DNA of 16,879 nt from an uncultured Pseudomonadota bacterium (lineage in GTDB: Bacteria > SAR324 > NAC60-12). Made by a program: the position numbers and the translations under genes. Within the stretch, counting starts at the first letter, position 1, and each line of letters opens with the position of its first letter. The DNA lies in contig CAJWCD010000083.1 of the NCBI GenBank assembly GCA_913020725.1, forward strand, positions 1 through 16,879, given 5' to 3'. Below, piece after piece: positions 5,234-13,711 of the stretch. The notes below the pieces were generated by a model. It was not told the origin of the DNA. It ran no database searches and saw only the letters and a program-made list of their open reading frames with translations.

Positions 5234-6544
5234 TCAAAGTTTGACGGGTTCCAGCCCACACCAGTTGGCAACAAAGAGGGCAATCGTGCCCGTCACCCGT
5301 TGAAGTGACGTGAGGCTGACGCGCTCGTCAAAGGCGTGAATGTCGTGGGAAACAGGCCCGTACACGAGGCAGGGGCAGGCGTCATACAACACGAACACAC
5401 GCCCATCGAGATACCCCGGCGTCACAAAGGATTCCAGACTGGAGCCAAAGCTGGCCGCGTGAGCCTGCCCCAGCACTTGCTCTGCGTCACTGCCCTCTTC
5501 CAGTACATAGCCCCGCGCAAAGAATCCGTTGTACTCGACCTCCGGAGGATTTTCGGAGAGAAAGGCATCGCCCAGGCTTTTTTTCTGTAGGCAGGCTTCG
5601 ATTTCCTGTGCGGCATCACGAGGATCAACTCCGGGATAAATTGCCGCCCGTACATCCAGAGTACACCACGCCGGTACCGACGAAGCCCAGTCACCACCCG
5701 CTATTTTGCCGACGTTGATATTGATGGGATGGTCGAGGTCTGCAAAATACCGATGCTCGGTCCGCCGTCTGTTCCACTCTGCTTCCAATTCCTTGAGTGC
5801 TCCCATCAGCGTGTACGCCGCTGCAATCGCGTTAGAACCGCGCCCCGCTTCGCGTACATGAAAGGGGCGTCCACGCACATGCACCCGGAACCAAATCACT
5901 CCGGCATTGGCCCGCACCAGCATGTTCTCTTCCGGCTCTGGAATGAGAGCCGCCTCCGCACGGTAACCACGCAGCAGTGCAGACAGTGCCCCGTTGCCTG
6001 TACATTCCTCTTCGGTCACGGATTGCACATGCACTTTGGCGGACGGTTGGAAACCCAAACTCCGCAGGGCGTCCAGCGCAAAGACGTTCGCGCAGAGTCC
6101 GGCTTTCATGTCCGCCCCACCGCGTCCGTACAGCCAATCGCCGACTATGTATGGATCAAATGGTGGGCGCGTCCACATCTCCAGTGGTCCCGTGGGCACC
6201 ACGTCAATGTGGCCGTTGAGGATCAGCGAACGCCCTTTGGCCGCGGTGGGATGATGGGTGCCGACGACGTTGAGCGCATTTGTGTAATCGACCTTGACGG
6301 GCGAAAAACCTGGATGGTTCTCAATCTCGGCAACGTCAATCGCCCAGCGGTCCATCTCGTAACCCCGCGTTTTCAGGGCATCGTAGAAGACGTTTTGGGC
6401 GGTGTGTTCCTGTCCTCGCAACGAGGGGTGGCGCATCAAGTCCATCGTGAAGCCGAGTTGGGTCTCAAAGCCCGCGGTCACCGCATCGAGGATTTTTTGG
6501 GAAAGGTCGGCGTTAATCGGCCCGGAGGGAGAGTCGTTTGCCAT
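5234..6544 (-). CDS. M20-family ArgE/DapE-like deacylase (acetylornithine deacetylase-like)
   Basis: Metal-binding motifs LILNGHIDVVP, GRGGADMKAG, TEEE and C-terminal IHAFDE. ATG is 2 nt after the upstream stop. Confidence 0.9.
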   Translation of the reverse strand: MANDSPSGPINADLSQKILDAVTAGFETQLGFTMDLMRHPSLRGQEHTAQNVFYDALKTRGYEMDRWAIDVAEIENHPGFSPVKVDYTNALNVVGTHHPTAAKGRSLILNGHIDVVPTGPLEMWTRPPFDPYIVGDWLYGRGGADMKAGLCANVFALDALRSLGFQPSAKVHVQSVTEEECTGNGALSALLRGYRAEAALIPEPEENMLVRANAGVIWFRVHVRGRPFHVREAGRGSNAIAAAYTLMGALKELEAEWNRRRTEHRYFADLDHPININVGKIAGGDWASSVPAWCTLDVRAAIYPGVDPRDAAQEIEACLQKKSLGDAFLSENPPEVEYNGFFARGYVLEEGSDAEQVLGQAHAASFGSSLESFVTPGYLDGRVFVLYDACPCLVYGPVSHDIHAFDERVSLTSLQRVTGTIALFVANWCGLEPVKL

Positions 6545-6546
6545 GT

Positions 6547-7530
6547 CTAGACAGGATCGCGGGAAAGTGCGTGGGTGGAGCAGGACACGCAGCCGCCCCA
6601 GTAGCTCACATGGTCGTACTCAATCTCGATGGGTTCCACACCCCGTTTAGCGAGTTCGTCACAAACCCTTCCCAAGCCGGAAGGAATGATGTAGCGTTGC
6701 GCGTCCAAGCTCACACCGACTGTGGCAAACGCTGTGGCTTCGGCCTCGCTGAGTTCAATCACATCCCATTCCTTGAGGGGTTCCGGAAGTTCGCACAGCA
6801 GTTCTTCCCGATGCAGTAGGAGCAAGCCTTCCCGGATCAGCACCATGATACCGAGCAGGTGCAGGATGGTGCCCTTCATCGGCATTGGATGCACCTCGTA
6901 GCCCAAGGGCGCAACGGTGTTCCGGAGCCATTCGGTTCCGGCGCGGTTTGTCGCAATCTTCGATTCCCCCACAAAAAGATGATGCTTGTAACACACGATG
7001 TCTCCCCCTTCGAGATAAGGTCCGGGGCCGTCGTGTGAGGGCGAAAACGGCAGGGCAGGCGGCATCACGATATGGCGTGTTTCGGGGTCTGCCGCCAACA
7101 GCGGTGCCACGATTTCCCGCAAGGGAAACACTTCCTTGCGGCGATAGGCACGTCGGAGATTCACCTCAAGGTAGGTCTTGCCTACCGTGAATACTGGATC
7201 CGCCGGATAGAGCAAAGAAGCCCCCGGTTGTAACTCCGCCAAATAGCTGCGCTCTTCTTCGGTGTAGGGACGCGGGCGGTAAACCGTGACTCCGTGTTTT
7301 ACGTAAAGCGTGGCGAGGCTGTCCAACTGCTCGACGGTTTTTTCCCAACGCTCCGGCATGGCGGTGCGAATGTCCAATGGCTGATCGCCACAGGCCTTGA
7401 GCGCCGCCTGCACTTCGTCGTTGTAGTGATGCAAAGACGGGTTGAAGGGCGGCAGGGACAGCCCCTCGGCACTGCCGACAATAGCGGCCCGCAACACTCC
7501 GTAATCGGTGTAGGCTCCAAAAGTAGACAT
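6547..7530 (-). CDS. Amidinotransferase/pentein superfamily protein (glycine amidinotransferase-like scaffold) with atypical active-site motifs
   Basis: N-terminus YTDYGVLRAAIVGSAEGLSLPP resembles glycine amidinotransferases. Also LEGGD, TNRAG..WL, catalytic-His motif LHL and C-terminal GGCVSCST with the nucleophilic Cys. ATG 7530 chosen because the 7587 extension translates an intergenic repeat. Confidence 0.85.
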   Translation of the reverse strand: MSTFGAYTDYGVLRAAIVGSAEGLSLPPFNPSLHHYNDEVQAALKACGDQPLDIRTAMPERWEKTVEQLDSLATLYVKHGVTVYRPRPYTEEERSYLAELQPGASLLYPADPVFTVGKTYLEVNLRRAYRRKEVFPLREIVAPLLAADPETRHIVMPPALPFSPSHDGPGPYLEGGDIVCYKHHLFVGESKIATNRAGTEWLRNTVAPLGYEVHPMPMKGTILHLLGIMVLIREGLLLLHREELLCELPEPLKEWDVIELSEAEATAFATVGVSLDAQRYIIPSGLGRVCDELAKRGVEPIEIEYDHVSYWGGCVSCSTHALSRDPV

Positions 7531-7557: not shown

Positions 7558-7612
7558 ACAGAGATGCAGAGGGCACAGAGAAAACAATCCTCAGTGTTCT
7601 CCGTGTCTCTGT
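7558..7612. repeat. Imperfect inverted repeat built from CAGAG units (REP-like)
   Basis: Arms ACAGAGATGCAGAGGGCACAGAG (7558-7580) and CTCAGTGTTCTCCGTGTCTCTGT (7590-7612); 17 of 23 positions are Watson-Crick complementary; 9-nt loop. Confidence 0.7.
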
Positions 7613-7619
7613 GATGAAT

Positions 7620-7650
7620 GAAAAGGCGGTAGTCGAAACCGCCGCCTTTG
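7620..7650 (-). terminator. Rho-independent terminator or mRNA-stabilising hairpin after the SBP gene
   Basis: Minus strand GGCGGT-TTCGACT-ACCGCC-TTTTCATT, about 20-50 nt after the SBP stop codon. Confidence 0.7.
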
Positions 7651-7671: not shown

Positions 7672-9279
7672 TCAGCCCATCCACCAACGCTCGGTGTTCT
7701 TGTGACCGTCGAACTCCCAGTTGGAAGCAACATCGGCGGGACGCTTGACGTTGCTGGTGCTGGCGTGTCCGTAAGCGGAGAAGATCGGAATGATCACGCT
7801 GCAATTGTCATGGACGATGCGCTGCATTTCCACATACATTTCGCGGCGTTTGGCATCATCCAACTCCGCCCGTGCTTGCACCAAGAGTTCTTCAAACTTT
7901 GGATGGACGAAGTTGGTTTCCGACCAGCCTGTGGCGATGGCTTTTTCGGAATAGACCTGGCTGAACATCCAGTCCTCTGTGGGACGTCCCCCCCAGTAGG
8001 AGGCCACCCAAGAATCCTTGAGCCAAGTGTTCGACCAGTAGCCATCATTGGGCTTGCGCACGACCTCGATATTGATGCCCGCCCCACGTGCGGTTTCCGC
8101 GAAGAGCACTCCGGCGTCATCCGAATCCTGAAATGCAGTGTCTGCGACCGAGAGCTTCAGATTGATCGAGGGCAGCCCCGCTTTCTTCATGTAATACTTG
8201 GCCATGTCGAGGTCATACTCGCGCTGCGGAATTTCGGAGTCCGAGGCGCGGTAGCGGTTGGCTGGGCCGATCGGGATGTCGTTGCCCAATGCCGCGTGTC
8301 CAAACCAAATCTTGTCCAGCCACTCCTGGCGATTGATAGCACTTTTGAGCGCCATCACCAAGTTGTTGTCGCCAAACGGATCGCGGTCGCTGAGCATCGG
8401 CAGGGTGCAGTGCTGGTTGCCGTTGGTGAAGAAGACCTCGATTCCCGGCTTGCTGCCCAAGCGCCCGGCGGTGCTCAGATTCGGAGCCGTGATCACATCG
8501 AGTTCCCCGGTGACAAGCCCGTTCTCCCGTGCAGTGACGTCGGCAATAAAGAGCGTCTCCACCGAATCGAAATGTGCCCGTCCGGACTTCCAGTAATTGG
8601 CATTGCGCGAAGTCAGGGTGCGCACCCCCGGATCGTAGTTCTCCAGCTTGTAACCCCCGGTGCCAATACCGGACTCCCAGTCAATCGAACCGTCTGCGTT
8701 GGCGGGACAAATGCCAAGGTGGTAATCCGTGAGCAGAAAGGGAAAGTCGGCGTTGGGACCTTCAAGTTTCATGACCACCTTGCTCTTACCGTCGGCTTTG
8801 ATCTCCTTGATTTGCGCGACAATGCCCTTGGCGCCGGACTTGGTTTTCTCGCCCAGATGGTGCTGAATGGACGCGACCACGTCGTTGGCTACCAACGAGC
8901 GGCCATTGTGGAATTCAACGCCCTTGCGCAGATTGAAGACCCAATTCTGACCGTCGGAGGTGTCCCATGACTCGGCGAGTTCCGGAATCAGTTGGTTGTT
9001 CTCGTCAAGCTCGGTGAGGTTGTTGCGCAACTGCCCCATGCCCACATTGATCATGTAAGAATCAAGGAACGTCGCGGGGTCGAGCCGGTCGCTTGTGGAT
9101 CCCCCGGTGAGTGCTTGGCGCAGCGTTCCGCCTCGTTGCGGAGAAGCCGCCAGCACGGAGTCTGACAGAGTTAGCGCCGTTGGCAGGGCAACGCCGACCG
9201 CCAAGGCGGAGCGCACAAAGTCTCTGCGCGAGAGACGGCCTTGGGCCAGTTTTGTTTTCAGAGCGTTGATTTCGTTCAT
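7672..9279 (-). CDS. ABC transporter substrate-binding protein, family 5 (DppA/OppA/NikA-like), Tat-exported
   Basis: Twin-arginine signal LSRRDFV plus hydrophobic stretch, then GGTLR, LDPA, PELAESW, LRKGVEFHNG and GTGGY family-5 motifs. Start at ATG 9279 (or 9288); the extension to 9435 is AT-rich intergenic sequence. Confidence 0.92.
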   Translation of the reverse strand: MNEINALKTKLAQGRLSRRDFVRSALAVGVALPTALTLSDSVLAASPQRGGTLRQALTGGSTSDRLDPATFLDSYMINVGMGQLRNNLTELDENNQLIPELAESWDTSDGQNWVFNLRKGVEFHNGRSLVANDVVASIQHHLGEKTKSGAKGIVAQIKEIKADGKSKVVMKLEGPNADFPFLLTDYHLGICPANADGSIDWESGIGTGGYKLENYDPGVRTLTSRNANYWKSGRAHFDSVETLFIADVTARENGLVTGELDVITAPNLSTAGRLGSKPGIEVFFTNGNQHCTLPMLSDRDPFGDNNLVMALKSAINRQEWLDKIWFGHAALGNDIPIGPANRYRASDSEIPQREYDLDMAKYYMKKAGLPSINLKLSVADTAFQDSDDAGVLFAETARGAGINIEVVRKPNDGYWSNTWLKDSWVASYWGGRPTEDWMFSQVYSEKAIATGWSETNFVHPKFEELLVQARAELDDAKRREMYVEMQRIVHDNCSVIIPIFSAYGHASTSNVKRPADVASNWEFDGHKNTERWWMG

Positions 9280-9364
9280 GGTATCCATTTCGTGGAAAGT
9301 TACAGAAGCATTCTCAAAGGAACACCCTTTTAGACCAAAATCCCAACCAAGAAGCAACCAAAAA

Positions 9365-9392
9365 ATTTTACGAATTCTGGAACAGACTGCAA
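9365..9392 (-). promoter_or_regulatory. Possible sigma70 promoter for the SBP unit
   Basis: Minus strand TTGCAG-N16-TAAAAT in the AT-rich divergent intergenic region. Confidence 0.3.
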
Positions 9393-9477
9393 ATACCTTG
9401 AGAAATAACCATTGGAATGTAAGAACACAAGGCAAGCTCCGACATTGAGGTAAAATCCCTCATTTCGGAAAGTTGAC

Positions 9478-10149: not shown

Positions 10150-11316
10150 ATGTACTTCAGCTTGCAAGAATATGAAACCCGCCTCGCCAAAACCCGGCAG
10201 GCAATGGACGCGCAGGGCGTTGAGTTGCTGTTCATCACCGATCCCTCGAACATGTCATGGCTGACTGGCTACGATGGTTGGTCTTTTTATGTCCATCAGG
10301 GGGTGCTGGTGCTTCCGGACGAACCTCCGATTTGGTGGGGTCGGGAAATGGACGTGAACGGGGGCAAGCGCACAGCCTACCTCGACCATGCACGACTGAT
10401 CGGCTATCCGGATCACTACGTCATGTCCACGGAGCGGCACCCGATGGACCACCTCAGCGCCCTCATGCAGGAACGCGGCTGGGGAAATCGTCGCATCGGG
10501 GTGGAAATGGACAACTACTACTTTGCGGCAAAGTGCCTGGAGTCGTTCCGGACGAACCTGCCGGAGGCGGAGTTTCTGGACGCGACAGGACTGGCCAACT
10601 GGCAGCGGGCGGTGAAATCGGCGCAGGAATTGGAGTACATGCGCATCGCCGGGCGCATCGTCACGCGCATGCACGAACGCATCCGGGAGTTCGCCGAGCC
10701 AGGCTTGCGGAAAAACGAGTTGGTGGCGGAAATCTACCGCACCGGAATACAAGGGGTGGACGGCTTCGGGGGTGATTATCCTGCGATTGTTCCGATGCTG
10801 CCTACCGGAGCCGATGCCTCAGCTCCACACCTGACGTGGGACGAGCAGCCGTTGAAATCCGGGGAGGGCACCTTTTTCGAGATTGCGGGCTGCTATCGGC
10901 GTTACCAATGCCCACTCAGCCGAACCCTGTTTTTCGGAACTCCAAACCAAGCGTGGCGGGATGCCGAAAGGGCGTTGCAGGAGAGCATCGAAGCCGGACT
11001 TGCACAAGCGCGTCCCGGTAACAAGTGCGAGGACATCGCCCGCGCCTTCAACGAAACGCTTGCCAAGCACGGACTCAAGAAAGACAGCCGCTGCGGCTAT
11101 CCCATCGGCATCAGCTACCCTCCGGATTGGGGAGAGCGCACCATGAGCCTGCGCTCCGGAGACACCACCGTGCTGGAACCGAACATGACCTTCCACTTCA
11201 TGCCCGGACTCTGGTTCGAGGATTGGGGGATTGAGATCACGGAAAGCATCGCCATCACCGAAGACGAGCCGGAATGCCTCGCCTCGGTGCCGCGAGAGTT
11301 GTTCGTGAAGGGGTAA
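10150..11316 (+). CDS. doeA: Ectoine hydrolase (M24 pita-bread fold)
   Basis: DPSNMSWLTGYDGWSFYVHQ, STERHPMD, GVEMDNYYF, NWQRAVKS, GGDYPAIVP, APHLTW, YPPDWGERTMSLR and FHFMPGLW are characteristic of DoeA/EutD. Confidence 0.92.
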   Translation: MYFSLQEYETRLAKTRQAMDAQGVELLFITDPSNMSWLTGYDGWSFYVHQGVLVLPDEPPIWWGREMDVNGGKRTAYLDHARLIGYPDHYVMSTERHPMDHLSALMQERGWGNRRIGVEMDNYYFAAKCLESFRTNLPEAEFLDATGLANWQRAVKSAQELEYMRIAGRIVTRMHERIREFAEPGLRKNELVAEIYRTGIQGVDGFGGDYPAIVPMLPTGADASAPHLTWDEQPLKSGEGTFFEIAGCYRRYQCPLSRTLFFGTPNQAWRDAERALQESIEAGLAQARPGNKCEDIARAFNETLAKHGLKKDSRCGYPIGISYPPDWGERTMSLRSGDTTVLEPNMTFHFMPGLWFEDWGIEITESIAITEDEPECLASVPRELFVKG

Positions 11317-12438: not shown

Positions 12439-12999
12439 TTACAGCACCGGCTCCTCGTCATCCCAGAACGGCTCCAACTCGACCCCCAGCCCATCGGCGA
12501 GGCGGTTGACGTAGGCGTAGTAGCCTACCACCTGCACGATGTCGAGGATGCCGACATCACTGAATCCAGCAACGCGCAATGCCTCCACATCCGCTGCTTC
12601 CATGTTCCATGGCTCTCGCGTGAGTTTGGCCGCATAGTCCAGCATCACCAAGTCCTGCTTGGAGAGGTCGGCGGTTTTGTAATCTTTGATGAACCGCTTG
12701 ACCCATTCGCCATCGCGAGTGATTTGACGGAGTCCCGCTCCGTGGTGGATGATTCAGTAATGACACTGGTTGACGATGGACACCACCACCGCGATCATCT
12801 CACGTTGTTTGCGCAAGAGGTCTTTGGTGCCCTTCATGGCGGAGTGATAAAGCGCCACATGCCCCTCAAGTGTGGGCAGGTTGATGCTGTGGACGCGCAG
12901 GATGTCGTCCACCCCGCCCCACGGATCCCGCAGTTTGTCGTACCACTCCTTGAGTTCCCCTTTTGCTTCGTCTTCGGGGATCATTGGAACCCAAGCCAT
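12439..12999 (-). CDS. AhpD/CMD-like peroxidase-related protein; probable selenoprotein (Cys79-His-Tyr-Sec82), 186 aa
   Basis: AAAGGAG RBS and ATG at 12999. Track ORFs 12754-13074 and 12439-12651 are in the same frame, separated only by TGA at 12756-12754: ...REMIAVVVSIVNQCHY-U-IIHHGAGLR...YAAKLT...GFSD..ILDI..VVGYYAYVNRLADGLG. TGA occupies the second Cys position of the AhpD CxxC..H motif. Confidence 0.9.
12727..12743 (-). promoter_or_regulatory. Candidate bacterial SECIS element
   Basis: Minus strand ACGGAG-CGGGA-CTCCGT: a perfect 6-bp stem starting 10 nt after the UGA, with the loop beginning 16 nt after it and G at loop position 2. Confidence 0.75.
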
Positions 13000-13045
13000 C
13001 GTTTCTCCTTTGTTTGAGTTTTGAAAAATCTCGTCAGGCCAGCAA

Positions 13046-13711
13046 TCAGGCCATGCGCCAGACGAACACGGCACCCAAGTCTTGCTTATGATCGGCAGCG
13101 TTGGGCATGGGCACGGACCAAGGGGTTTGGTCGAGTCGCTGCCAACGTCCGGAGGCTTCCCAAGCTTCGGCCTGCGCCTGAAAACCCAACCGCTCCCACG
13201 AATCTACCATCAGCGGAACCACCACCGCCGCACCGGATTGGGCGACACGTAGCACCTCCTCCAAGCCTTCGACTGACACATGCCCCTGCGTGAAGACTCC
13301 CACGGCGATCACGGCCTCAAAAGCATCGTCCGGAAAGGGCAGACGTTTGAGCAAATCACCAACCTTGGCTTGCGCATACACTCCACGGGTCTGCGCTTCC
13401 TTCAGCATTTCCGGGGAAAAATCGGTGGCTGTCAGATTCGTGTACCCCAAATCGTGCAGCCAACTGCCGACCAGTCCCGTGCCTGCACCGACATCAAGAA
13501 TTGCGGCATCCCGTTTGGTCAGATGACGAGCCAACATTGCCGCCGCCAAAGCCGGAAAGCGATAGCCCATGCTGGCAACATCCGCGTCGTAATCCTGTGC
13601 CCATCCAGCATAGGCCGAGGATAGGTCGTTGGTGGTTGCTGCCCCGTACACCCGCTCCAAGTGCTCGTCAATAGGTTTTTTGGAATGGAGTGTCGTCATT
13701 GCCTCAATCAT
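13046..13711 (-). CDS. Class I SAM-dependent methyltransferase (METTL27/WBSCR27-like)
   Basis: Y..WAQDYD, motif I ILDVGAGTGLVG, motif II TDFSPEML, and AVIAVGVFT.GH. AGGAG lies 5 nt upstream of ATG 13711. Confidence 0.88.
   Translation of the reverse strand: MIEAMTTLHSKKPIDEHLERVYGAATTNDLSSAYAGWAQDYDADVASMGYRFPALAAAMLARHLTKRDAAILDVGAGTGLVGSWLHDLGYTNLTATDFSPEMLKEAQTRGVYAQAKVGDLLKRLPFPDDAFEAVIAVGVFTQGHVSVEGLEEVLRVAQSGAAVVVPLMVDSWERLGFQAQAEAWEASGRWQRLDQTPWSVPMPNAADHKQDLGAVFVWRMA

Follow-up and report, generated by a model that had tools for sequence, protein, structure and literature searches.

Introduction

Penteins are defined by the grip of two aspartates on a guanidinium group, and DDAH and NnhA have each lost one of the two and gained a new substrate. 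The window analysed here, a stretch of 16,879 nucleotides from an uncultured SAR324 bacterium, carries a gene that raises the question of what a pentein would act on when a third combination (an arginine, the second aspartate and a late asparagine) is gone; this combination was lost once, in what we call the A-D-L clade, which makes it a testable case of new pentein chemistry. A first-pass annotation had read the guanidinium pocket as rewired and had proposed a substrate with carbon where arginine has NH2, naming ectoine-type amidines and creatine among the candidates. We consider below the residues, the predicted fold, the neighbouring genes and the host genome, and the alternatives that each of them brings into play.

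Gene, motifs and predicted fold

The open reading frame 7530..6547 (minus strand) is a pentein, judging by the propeller fold of its model and by the positions that alignment gives to a Cys-His-Glu triad. The gene and the codons referred to below are as follows.

6547..7530, minus strand: coding sequence of the pentein (guanidino-modifying superfamily), A-D-L-V sub-clade; 327 amino acids, ATG start
6580..6582, minus strand: Cys317 codon, predicted nucleophile, aligned with the catalytic Cys of AGAT, HsvA and SxtG
6859..6861, minus strand: His224 codon, predicted acid/base, from alignment to amidinotransferases
7009..7011, minus strand: Glu174 codon (EGGD), predicted third triad residue, from alignment
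7198..7203, minus strand: Ala110-Asp111 codons, Arg of the RD motif swapped and Asp retained, from alignment and clade rows
6853..6855, minus strand: Leu226 codon, standing for the HxD Asp, from alignment and clade rows
6718..6720, minus strand: Val271 codon, standing for the late conserved Asn, from alignment and clade rows
7141..7143, minus strand: Arg130 codon, likely binder of the substrate carboxylate (predicted), by analogy with arginine deiminase (ADI) and DDAH

The translation contains the motifs Y108-P-A110-D111, E174-G-G-D177, L223-H224-L-L226-G227, A269-T-V271-G-V and W311-G-G-C314-V-S-C317. An end-to-end HMM alignment with human AGAT, HsvA and SxtG sets PAD opposite PRD, EGGD opposite DAAD, HLL opposite HID, and C317 opposite the C-terminal catalytic cysteine; because the catalytic Cys of all three aligns there, we assign the nucleophile to the second Cys of GGCVSC, and C314 varies within the clade (G/A/S/C/D). 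The late Asn column falls on V271 in MAFFT and on G272 in a gapped HMMER alignment, and is non-Asn both ways. The first-pass annotation was thus right that the catalytic Cys, His and EGGD are retained, that HxD reads HLL and that the late Asn (in ATVGV) is replaced; its reading of the RD motif as YPAD holds for the arginine, which is lost, and not for the aspartate, which is kept as D111.

An AlphaFold2 model was built from A1, a profile of 40 homologues with 64-82% identity (mean pLDDT 85.5, pTM 0.87), and compared with 48,161 representative PDB chains. AGAT is the best structural match (Z 34.8, rmsd 2.7 Å, 315 residues aligned), other matches being StrB1 (Z 34.2), ADI (29.0-27.6), NnhA (27.8), ArgZ (27.1) and DDAH (25-26.3); the comparison with AGAT, ADI and DDAH that had been suggested earlier thus gives Z of 34.8, 29 and 26. 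All of the top 18 matches (Z 15.5-34.8) are penteins, with the alpha/beta propeller fold, and Foldseek is concordant (E 1e-22). HsvA and SxtG lead the sequence-profile searches, and the ten PDB matches of the single sequence are all amidinotransferases or DDAH. The predicted fold is therefore closest to that of the amidinotransferases.

Since transferases make up all the best matches by structure and by profile, and an AGAT-like N-terminal segment is found in the HMM alignment, the protein might be an imidoyl or amidino transferase, in which a covalent intermediate formed from an altered donor would be passed to an amine unmasked by the deacylase encoded beside it. The title of one PDB entry, that of D280A ADI with a covalent intermediate trapped, points the same way, as loss of the HxD Asp may therefore impair hydrolysis. 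We nonetheless think a transferase unlikely: the catalytic acid is the Glu of EGGD, as in ADI and DDAH, rather than the Asp that amidinotransferases use in DAAD, every aligned transferase retains RD, HxD and N, and, as described below, the neighbours are not biosynthetic.

Searches with the protein gave no Pfam match at E 0.001, PF02274 included, and its homologues carry automatic database names, either "glycine amidinotransferase" or "dimethylaminohydrolase"; the nearest named one is from SAR324 (90% identical), and the ESM Atlas holds automatic "amidinotransferase" names only, without a model. If such names were correct, this would be an ordinary Arg:Gly amidinotransferase or arginine deiminase; that it is one of these, or a dead enzyme, is very improbable. 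Three residues found in every aligned transferase are missing, a canonical AGAT (PPRD/FDAAD/HID/SMN/GGLHC) is encoded elsewhere in the genome (contig C96), and in A1, whose 40 sequences were not selected for the triad, E174 and H224 do not vary and C317 hardly does. The first-pass annotation had likewise allowed that an ordinary Arg:Gly amidinotransferase would undo its reading, and these findings argue against one.

Three pocket substitutions fixed in one clade

In a close set consisting of the query and the best 120 of the 254 homologues found (n = 121), HLLG, ATVG and EGGD are each present in 121/121 and PAD in 118/121, while H[LI]D occurs in 0/121. For a wider view, the best 150 of 475 matches among 50%-identity representatives were taken, and those of at least 200 amino acids were aligned with references (136 rows); after removal of 36 rows that were fragments or lacked an aligned triad, and with 15 close relatives and references set aside, 85 remained. 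Arg, Asp and Asn are all present in 73 of these and all absent from 10, the query included, and 2 lack Arg only. A further search contributed 72 new proteins to a FastTree tree of 168 rows, in which the 75 rows without Asp at position 226, the genome's own DDAH-like outgroup not counted, form one clade (support 0.964). It has no Asp-bearing member and sits beside relatives bearing the normal R/D/N set.

Within these 75 rows, position 110 is A in 66 and C in 9, position 111 D in 73 and E in 2, position 226 L in 61, F in 6, Y in 5, another residue in 3 and D in 0, and position 271 C in 38, V in 31, D in 6 and N in 0. Arg130 is invariant in A1 and present in 50/75 clade rows. Position 317 is C in 75/75, these rows having been selected for it; the invariance of the triad in the clade is by construction, because rows were selected for the triad. 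The query's own sub-clade, A-D-L-V, comprises 31 tips (support 1.0) and its sister within the A-D-L clade 44, and members as little as 25-40% identical keep the substitutions. No PDB chain belonging to the clade was among the structure matches found, and in genome samples of 401, 400 and 1 we found query-type or canonical genes only, and none of the sister sub-clade. A separate, well-supported pentein clade of 17 tips has RE and HGDY-type motifs, many of its members lying in proteins of 500-2550 amino acids (P0161, P0166, P0172, P0175, P0204, P0243 and kin).

The substitutions are more than noise, with HxD in 0/121 close proteins and 75/75 Asp-less rows in a single clade; the possibility raised earlier, that they might not be conserved in homologues, is thereby set aside. 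We discarded a Fisher test of the co-occurrence of R and D (p 2e-11), as the tree indicates one origin: because the joint loss of R, D and N is one evolutionary event, it does not count as independent evidence. Aligned residues thus support the earlier view of a rewired guanidinium pocket, in which, by alignment, Arg, Asp and Asn have given way to Ala110, Leu226 and Val271.

In penteins N-epsilon and one terminal nitrogen are held by the first Asp, and the terminal nitrogens by that of HxD; R130 presumably corresponds to the Arg that binds the substrate carboxylate in ADI and DDAH. The query would then still hold the carboxylate and an HN-C=NH pair, and the place of the other NH2 would be lined by non-polar residues. 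Such a pocket would suit N-iminoethyl or N-formimino amino acids of linear form, cyclic 2-imino acids, or substrates of the N-omega-alkylarginine type. On the same geometry, ectoine, with both nitrogens in the ring and ring N-H bonds that cannot pair with Asp111, would fit less well, and so would creatine, which has no N-epsilon H for Asp111 to bind; creatine, one of the substrates first proposed, accordingly loses favour.

The available portion of PMC11659421 describes the HxD Asp of ADI as stabilising the guanidino group, the second Asp as contacting the substrate from the opposite side, and the late Asn as conserved in ADI, DDAH and NnhA; NnhA is inactivated by D262N and by N311D. DDAH has a Lys at the HxD Asp site, which admits the dimethylamino group, and is the one characterised precedent for loss of that Asp (PMC11659421, same portion). 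The clade may accordingly be a second, independent solution of the DDAH kind, hydrolysing an N-omega-methylated or alkylated guanidino acid with release of the alkylamine bound in the non-polar site and an ureido acid as the product. We regard this as unlikely, if less so than a transferase: DDAH uses Lys and retains Asn (PMC11659421, same portion), the NCBIfam DDAH models give the query 33.6, 27.7 and 18.6 bits against cut-offs of 340, 450 and 300, and the genome already has a separate DDAH-like pentein on contig C124 (YTHD/EGGD/HLM/GCN).

NnhA, which acts on 2-nitroimidazole, is a pentein with a more hydrophobic pocket outside guanidine chemistry (PMC11659421, in the portion available). By analogy, the clade might attack a non-amidine electrophile, such as a lactam, a cyclic ureide, an imidate or a heteroaromatic carbon, and hydantoinase/oxoprolinase genes are convergent neighbours of the pentein in one lineage. 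This, too, we think rather improbable, slightly more so than a transferase. Position 111 is D or E in 75/75 clade rows, and its conservation suggests that there is an N-H pair to bind; the pattern in NnhA is moreover the opposite one, with the first Asp lost and HxD and Asn kept (PMC11659421, same portion).

Deacylase partner and gene neighbourhood

Two genes on the same strand flank the pentein.

5234..6544, minus strand: M20 ArgE/DapE-family deacylase, PRK06837 subfamily (NF005306, 666 bits against a cut-off of 376)
7672..9435, minus strand: family-5 ABC solute-binding protein (PF00496), upstream of the pentein, possible uptake partner

The ATG of the deacylase lies 2 nt past the pentein stop codon, and hydantoinase/carbamoylase models are absent from the best 25 of its 48 listed matches. 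A PRK06837 deacylase lies directly downstream in 31/32 genome loci of the query's sub-clade (36 loci, minus 4 without the pentein 3' end), the pair being interrupted in L014, and in 64/70 metagenome loci (80, minus 10 without room downstream). The pairing holds at 51-55% pentein identity (L032, L111 and L116) and is found in L147 too, and the partners in L032, L116 and L147 likewise exceed the PRK06837 cut-off; by record title, the loci come from SAR324, Arenicellales/Acidiferrobacteraceae, other Gammaproteobacteria and Hyphomicrobiales. Paired loci are kin, and the correlation of pentein and M20 pairwise identities (Mantel rho 0.78, 20 dereplicated pairs) shows joint inheritance, not co-evolution.

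The coupling is not tight in every lineage. Two SAR324-like loci, L040 (pentein 99% identical) and L043 (93%), share a deletion junction (1192-1244 and 1083-1126, respectively) by which most of the deacylase is gone while the pentein is intact, L040 bearing a further deletion, and the deacylase is also missing in L010, L051 and L107-109; loci of this kind argue against tight coupling and weigh against a hydrolase that depends on the deacylase. A carbamoylase-type (hydantoinase/carbamoylase) M20 gene lies directly upstream of the pentein in L010, L026, L047 and L063 (2/36 genome and 2/80 metagenome loci), which would suit an N-methylguanidine substrate, as would the methylamine-catabolism genes (MttB, dimethylglycine-dehydrogenase-like, MTHFR) that recur near the pentein; the usual partner, however, belongs to a deacylase family and not to the carbamoylases.

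We found no assayed member of PRK06837, and the closest PDB entry, 3pfo, is titled "putative". Homologues without a pentein, in six plasmid contexts (6/63 records), have ABC uptake, aminotransferase, CoA-transferase and HDAC-family neighbours, which do not name the substrate. In one of them (L125, 5302-10470) the PRK06837 homologue lies between an aminotransferase III gene, CoA-transferase subunits and a thiolase, a gene set that the route from acetyl-beta-lysine to 4-acetamidobutyrate resembles.

Close homologues of the solute-binding protein adjoin the pentein in SAR324-like loci, and outside these one was seen in L032 alone, with 45% identity; the remaining flanking genes differ between lineages. 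No biosynthetic cluster surrounds the pentein, its neighbours being uptake and catabolic genes. The stretch between the solute-binding protein and the pentein (window 7581-7643) contains a terminator-like hairpin at 7643-7625 and an element of about 40 nt with 82-88% matches at five other places in the genome; a promoter and terminator scan stayed at chance level. Contigs from 4/4 RNA libraries of seawater or marine origin include parts of the pentein and M20 genes, one across the junction with the solute-binding protein and one across the pentein-M20 junction, although neither transcription nor a single transcript can be concluded from contigs.

Among the relatives with canonical R/D/N residues, a carbamoylase or an isochorismatase-family amidase is near 4/9 wide-flank loci (L119, L150, L152 and L154), all of one sequence type, and no PRK06837 gene was seen beside the canonical relatives in the loci examined. 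A carboxamide product is favoured mainly because the A-D-L clade adjoins a deacylase whereas its canonical relatives adjoin a carbamoylase (guanidine to ureide), but this contrast of neighbours is suggestive only. The part of the earlier proposal that places carbon where arginine has NH2 is compatible with the adjoining deacylase; the substrates it named are not supported.

The canonical loci are of interest in themselves. L154 (1569-9983) and L152 (2646-10091) carry a canonical-motif pentein, an isochorismatase-family amidase (BiuH-like, below cut-off) and a Bmp ABC transporter in one run, which in L154 also has a creatininase over cut-off, and a DUF1989 gene comes next in this setting; they are a candidate route from creatinine through creatine to N-carbamoylsarcosine by way of a pentein deiminase. 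In L119 (2389-7954, an Agrobacterium plasmid) and L150, a canonical-motif pentein labelled "hypothetical protein" has an amino-acid ABC transporter and a carbamoylase beside it, and these genes likely serve the catabolism of an unusual guanidino acid.

Host genome and the ectoine route

One further gene of the window bears on the substrate.

10150..11316, plus strand: DoeA ectoine hydrolase, over cut-off, 2.6 kb from the pentein

Ectoine is an amidine that carries a C-methyl group and a carboxylate, a deacetylase is required to process its product, and 29/34 carrier genomes have no DoeA over cut-off, all of which could be accommodated by an alternative ectoine/hydroxyectoine ring hydrolase with the M20 enzyme in DoeB's place. 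DoeA and DoeB form the standard ectoine-degradation route (PMC5320631, in the part available). The source genome, which is 93% complete, has DoeA and also EutE/DoeB over cut-off (TIGR02994; contig C18, apart from DoeA); DoeA is over cut-off in 5/34 carrier genomes, a DoeA or DoeA-like gene is present in 30/34, and an EutE or AstE/AspA gene adjoins it in G111, L144 and L145. DoeA is moreover near the pentein only in the window and two near-identical contigs, and so is not a conserved neighbour, and the ring geometry reasoned out above is ill-suited to bidentate binding by Asp. We thus give the ectoine-type substrate of the first-pass annotation only a slight chance.

Two further roles were tried and rejected. 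The idea that the M20 enzyme replaces a missing DoeB arose from an empty PF04952 search, but that is a domain model of 76 positions, and TIGR02994 found EutE over cut-off; the pair is also not needed as a stand-in for HutF, as HutF and HutU are both over cut-off in the source genome; the substrate may nonetheless be a formamidine. Because the genome has AGAT, DoeA, EutE, HutF and HutU, the pair would be unneeded for creatine synthesis and for ectoine or formiminoglutamate breakdown. The pentein is patchy in distribution, occurring in 3/88 genomes of its own phylum, in 2/401 genomes of the class of L032 and in 1/400 of that of L006 (both of the latter counts include the centre genome).

Several further observations were made in these genomes. 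On contig C96 (2546-7640) the canonical AGAT has as neighbours two creatinase-like M24 peptidases, an ABC uptake system and an ORF of 281 amino acids. DoeA-like M24 genes that fall short of the DoeA cut-off, at about 400-430 bits, occur widely in these Gammaproteobacteria (G091-G120; L145, L146), and in L145 one of them is next to genes for an AstE/AspA deacylase and a PhyH dioxygenase and to an EutA-like gene, possibly a second pathway for an ectoine analogue. In the window itself, an AhpD/peroxidase-related ORF at 13074..12442 (minus strand) has an in-frame TGA at 12756 (CHY-TGA) and stays open for about 105 codons beyond it; it is likely a selenoprotein because the genome has tRNA-Sec.

Proposed reaction and its significance

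The explanation that we prefer, tentatively, is that this pentein of an uncharacterised clade is an amidine hydrolase, converting an N-substituted amidine amino acid, with C-alkyl or H in place of one guanidino NH2, to an N-acyl amino acid that the deacylase then cleaves. Asp111 would pair with two amidine N-H groups and Arg130 would hold the substrate carboxylate, while the non-polar site of Ala110, Leu226 and Val271 would accept the carbon substituent (of the N-iminoethyl, N-formimino or 2-imino-pyrrolidine/piperidine type). Cys317 would attack the amidine carbon, His224 and Glu174 would help to expel ammonia or a ring amine, water would convert the thioimidate to the carboxamide, and the deacylase would release acetate or formate and the amine.

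Retention of the triad and of the first Asp, together with the joint loss of R, D and N in one clade, is consistent with such a hydrolase, as are the ADI/DDAH-type EGGD motif and a partner far above its deacylase cut-off that lies directly downstream in most loci. N-iminoalkyl-ornithines bind DDAH, which is likewise without the HxD Asp; the portion of PMC6273216 available presents these alkyl amidines as inhibitors, turnover not being reported there, which cuts the other way. The proximity of the fold to transferases, the intermediate held by D280A ADI, and the loci that lack the deacylase or have a carbamoylase upstream also count against a hydrolase.

It is possible, and we advance it with somewhat greater reserve, that among penteins the A-D-L family was the first to turn from guanidines to the hydrolysis of C-alkyl amidines. 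Pentein and deacylase would then make up a two-step pathway, so far unrecognised, through which a marine amidine metabolite, as yet absent from the list of ocean substrates, supplies carbon and nitrogen to SAR324, to Gammaproteobacteria of the Arenicellales type and to some Alphaproteobacteria. As most carriers in our searches are uncultured bacteria of the sea, the substrate would lead to an organic nitrogen compound that is used in seawater and not yet listed. Database names such as "glycine amidinotransferase" are corrected for genes of this clade.

Comparison with known systems

Our search found nothing relevant in the literature on the A-D-L clade, its residue roles or amidine-hydrolysing penteins, most subscription papers lying outside its scope, and the portion of PMC12623156 available makes no mention of an enzyme of this kind; the sequence network of the NnhA paper may include A-D-L sequences, unnamed. 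The amidinotransferases AGAT (1jdw), StrB1 (1bwd), HsvA (5wpi) and SxtG (6u1r) are like the query in fold, length, N-terminal segment, Cys/His and first Asp, but share only about 20% identity with it, have the DAAD Asp where it has the EGGD Glu, and carry R, the HxD Asp and Asn where it has A, L and V (PAD, HLL, TVG). ADI (1s9r, 1rxx, 4bof; Z 27.6-29) shares EGGD and the triad, whereas the query has neither the PF02274 match nor the HxD Asp and Asn.

DDAH (P. aeruginosa, 1h70/3bpb; human DDAH-1) and the query are both without the HxD Asp and both have the first Asp and an ExGD acid; DDAH, however, has Lys at the HxD site and the late Asn where the query has Leu226 and Val271, is shorter (about 255-285 amino acids; Z 25-26), and its NCBIfam models score the query at about a tenth of their cut-offs or less. 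NnhA (9azg; Z 27.8, 16% identity) also comes from an uncharacterised pentein group and acquired, by way of a more hydrophobic pocket, a substrate other than arginine, but its rewiring is the mirror image, with the first Asp replaced by Trp149 and Asp262 and Asn311 kept.

The logic that we propose, amidine to amide and then deacylation, is that of DoeA/EutD with DoeB/EutE and of HutF with HutG. The ectoine and Hut enzymes, however, have M24 or amidohydrolase folds, HutF being of the latter kind, whereas the query is a pentein. By its aligned residues, then, the query is within the pentein superfamily and yet without the defining residues of AGAT, ADI, DDAH and NnhA.
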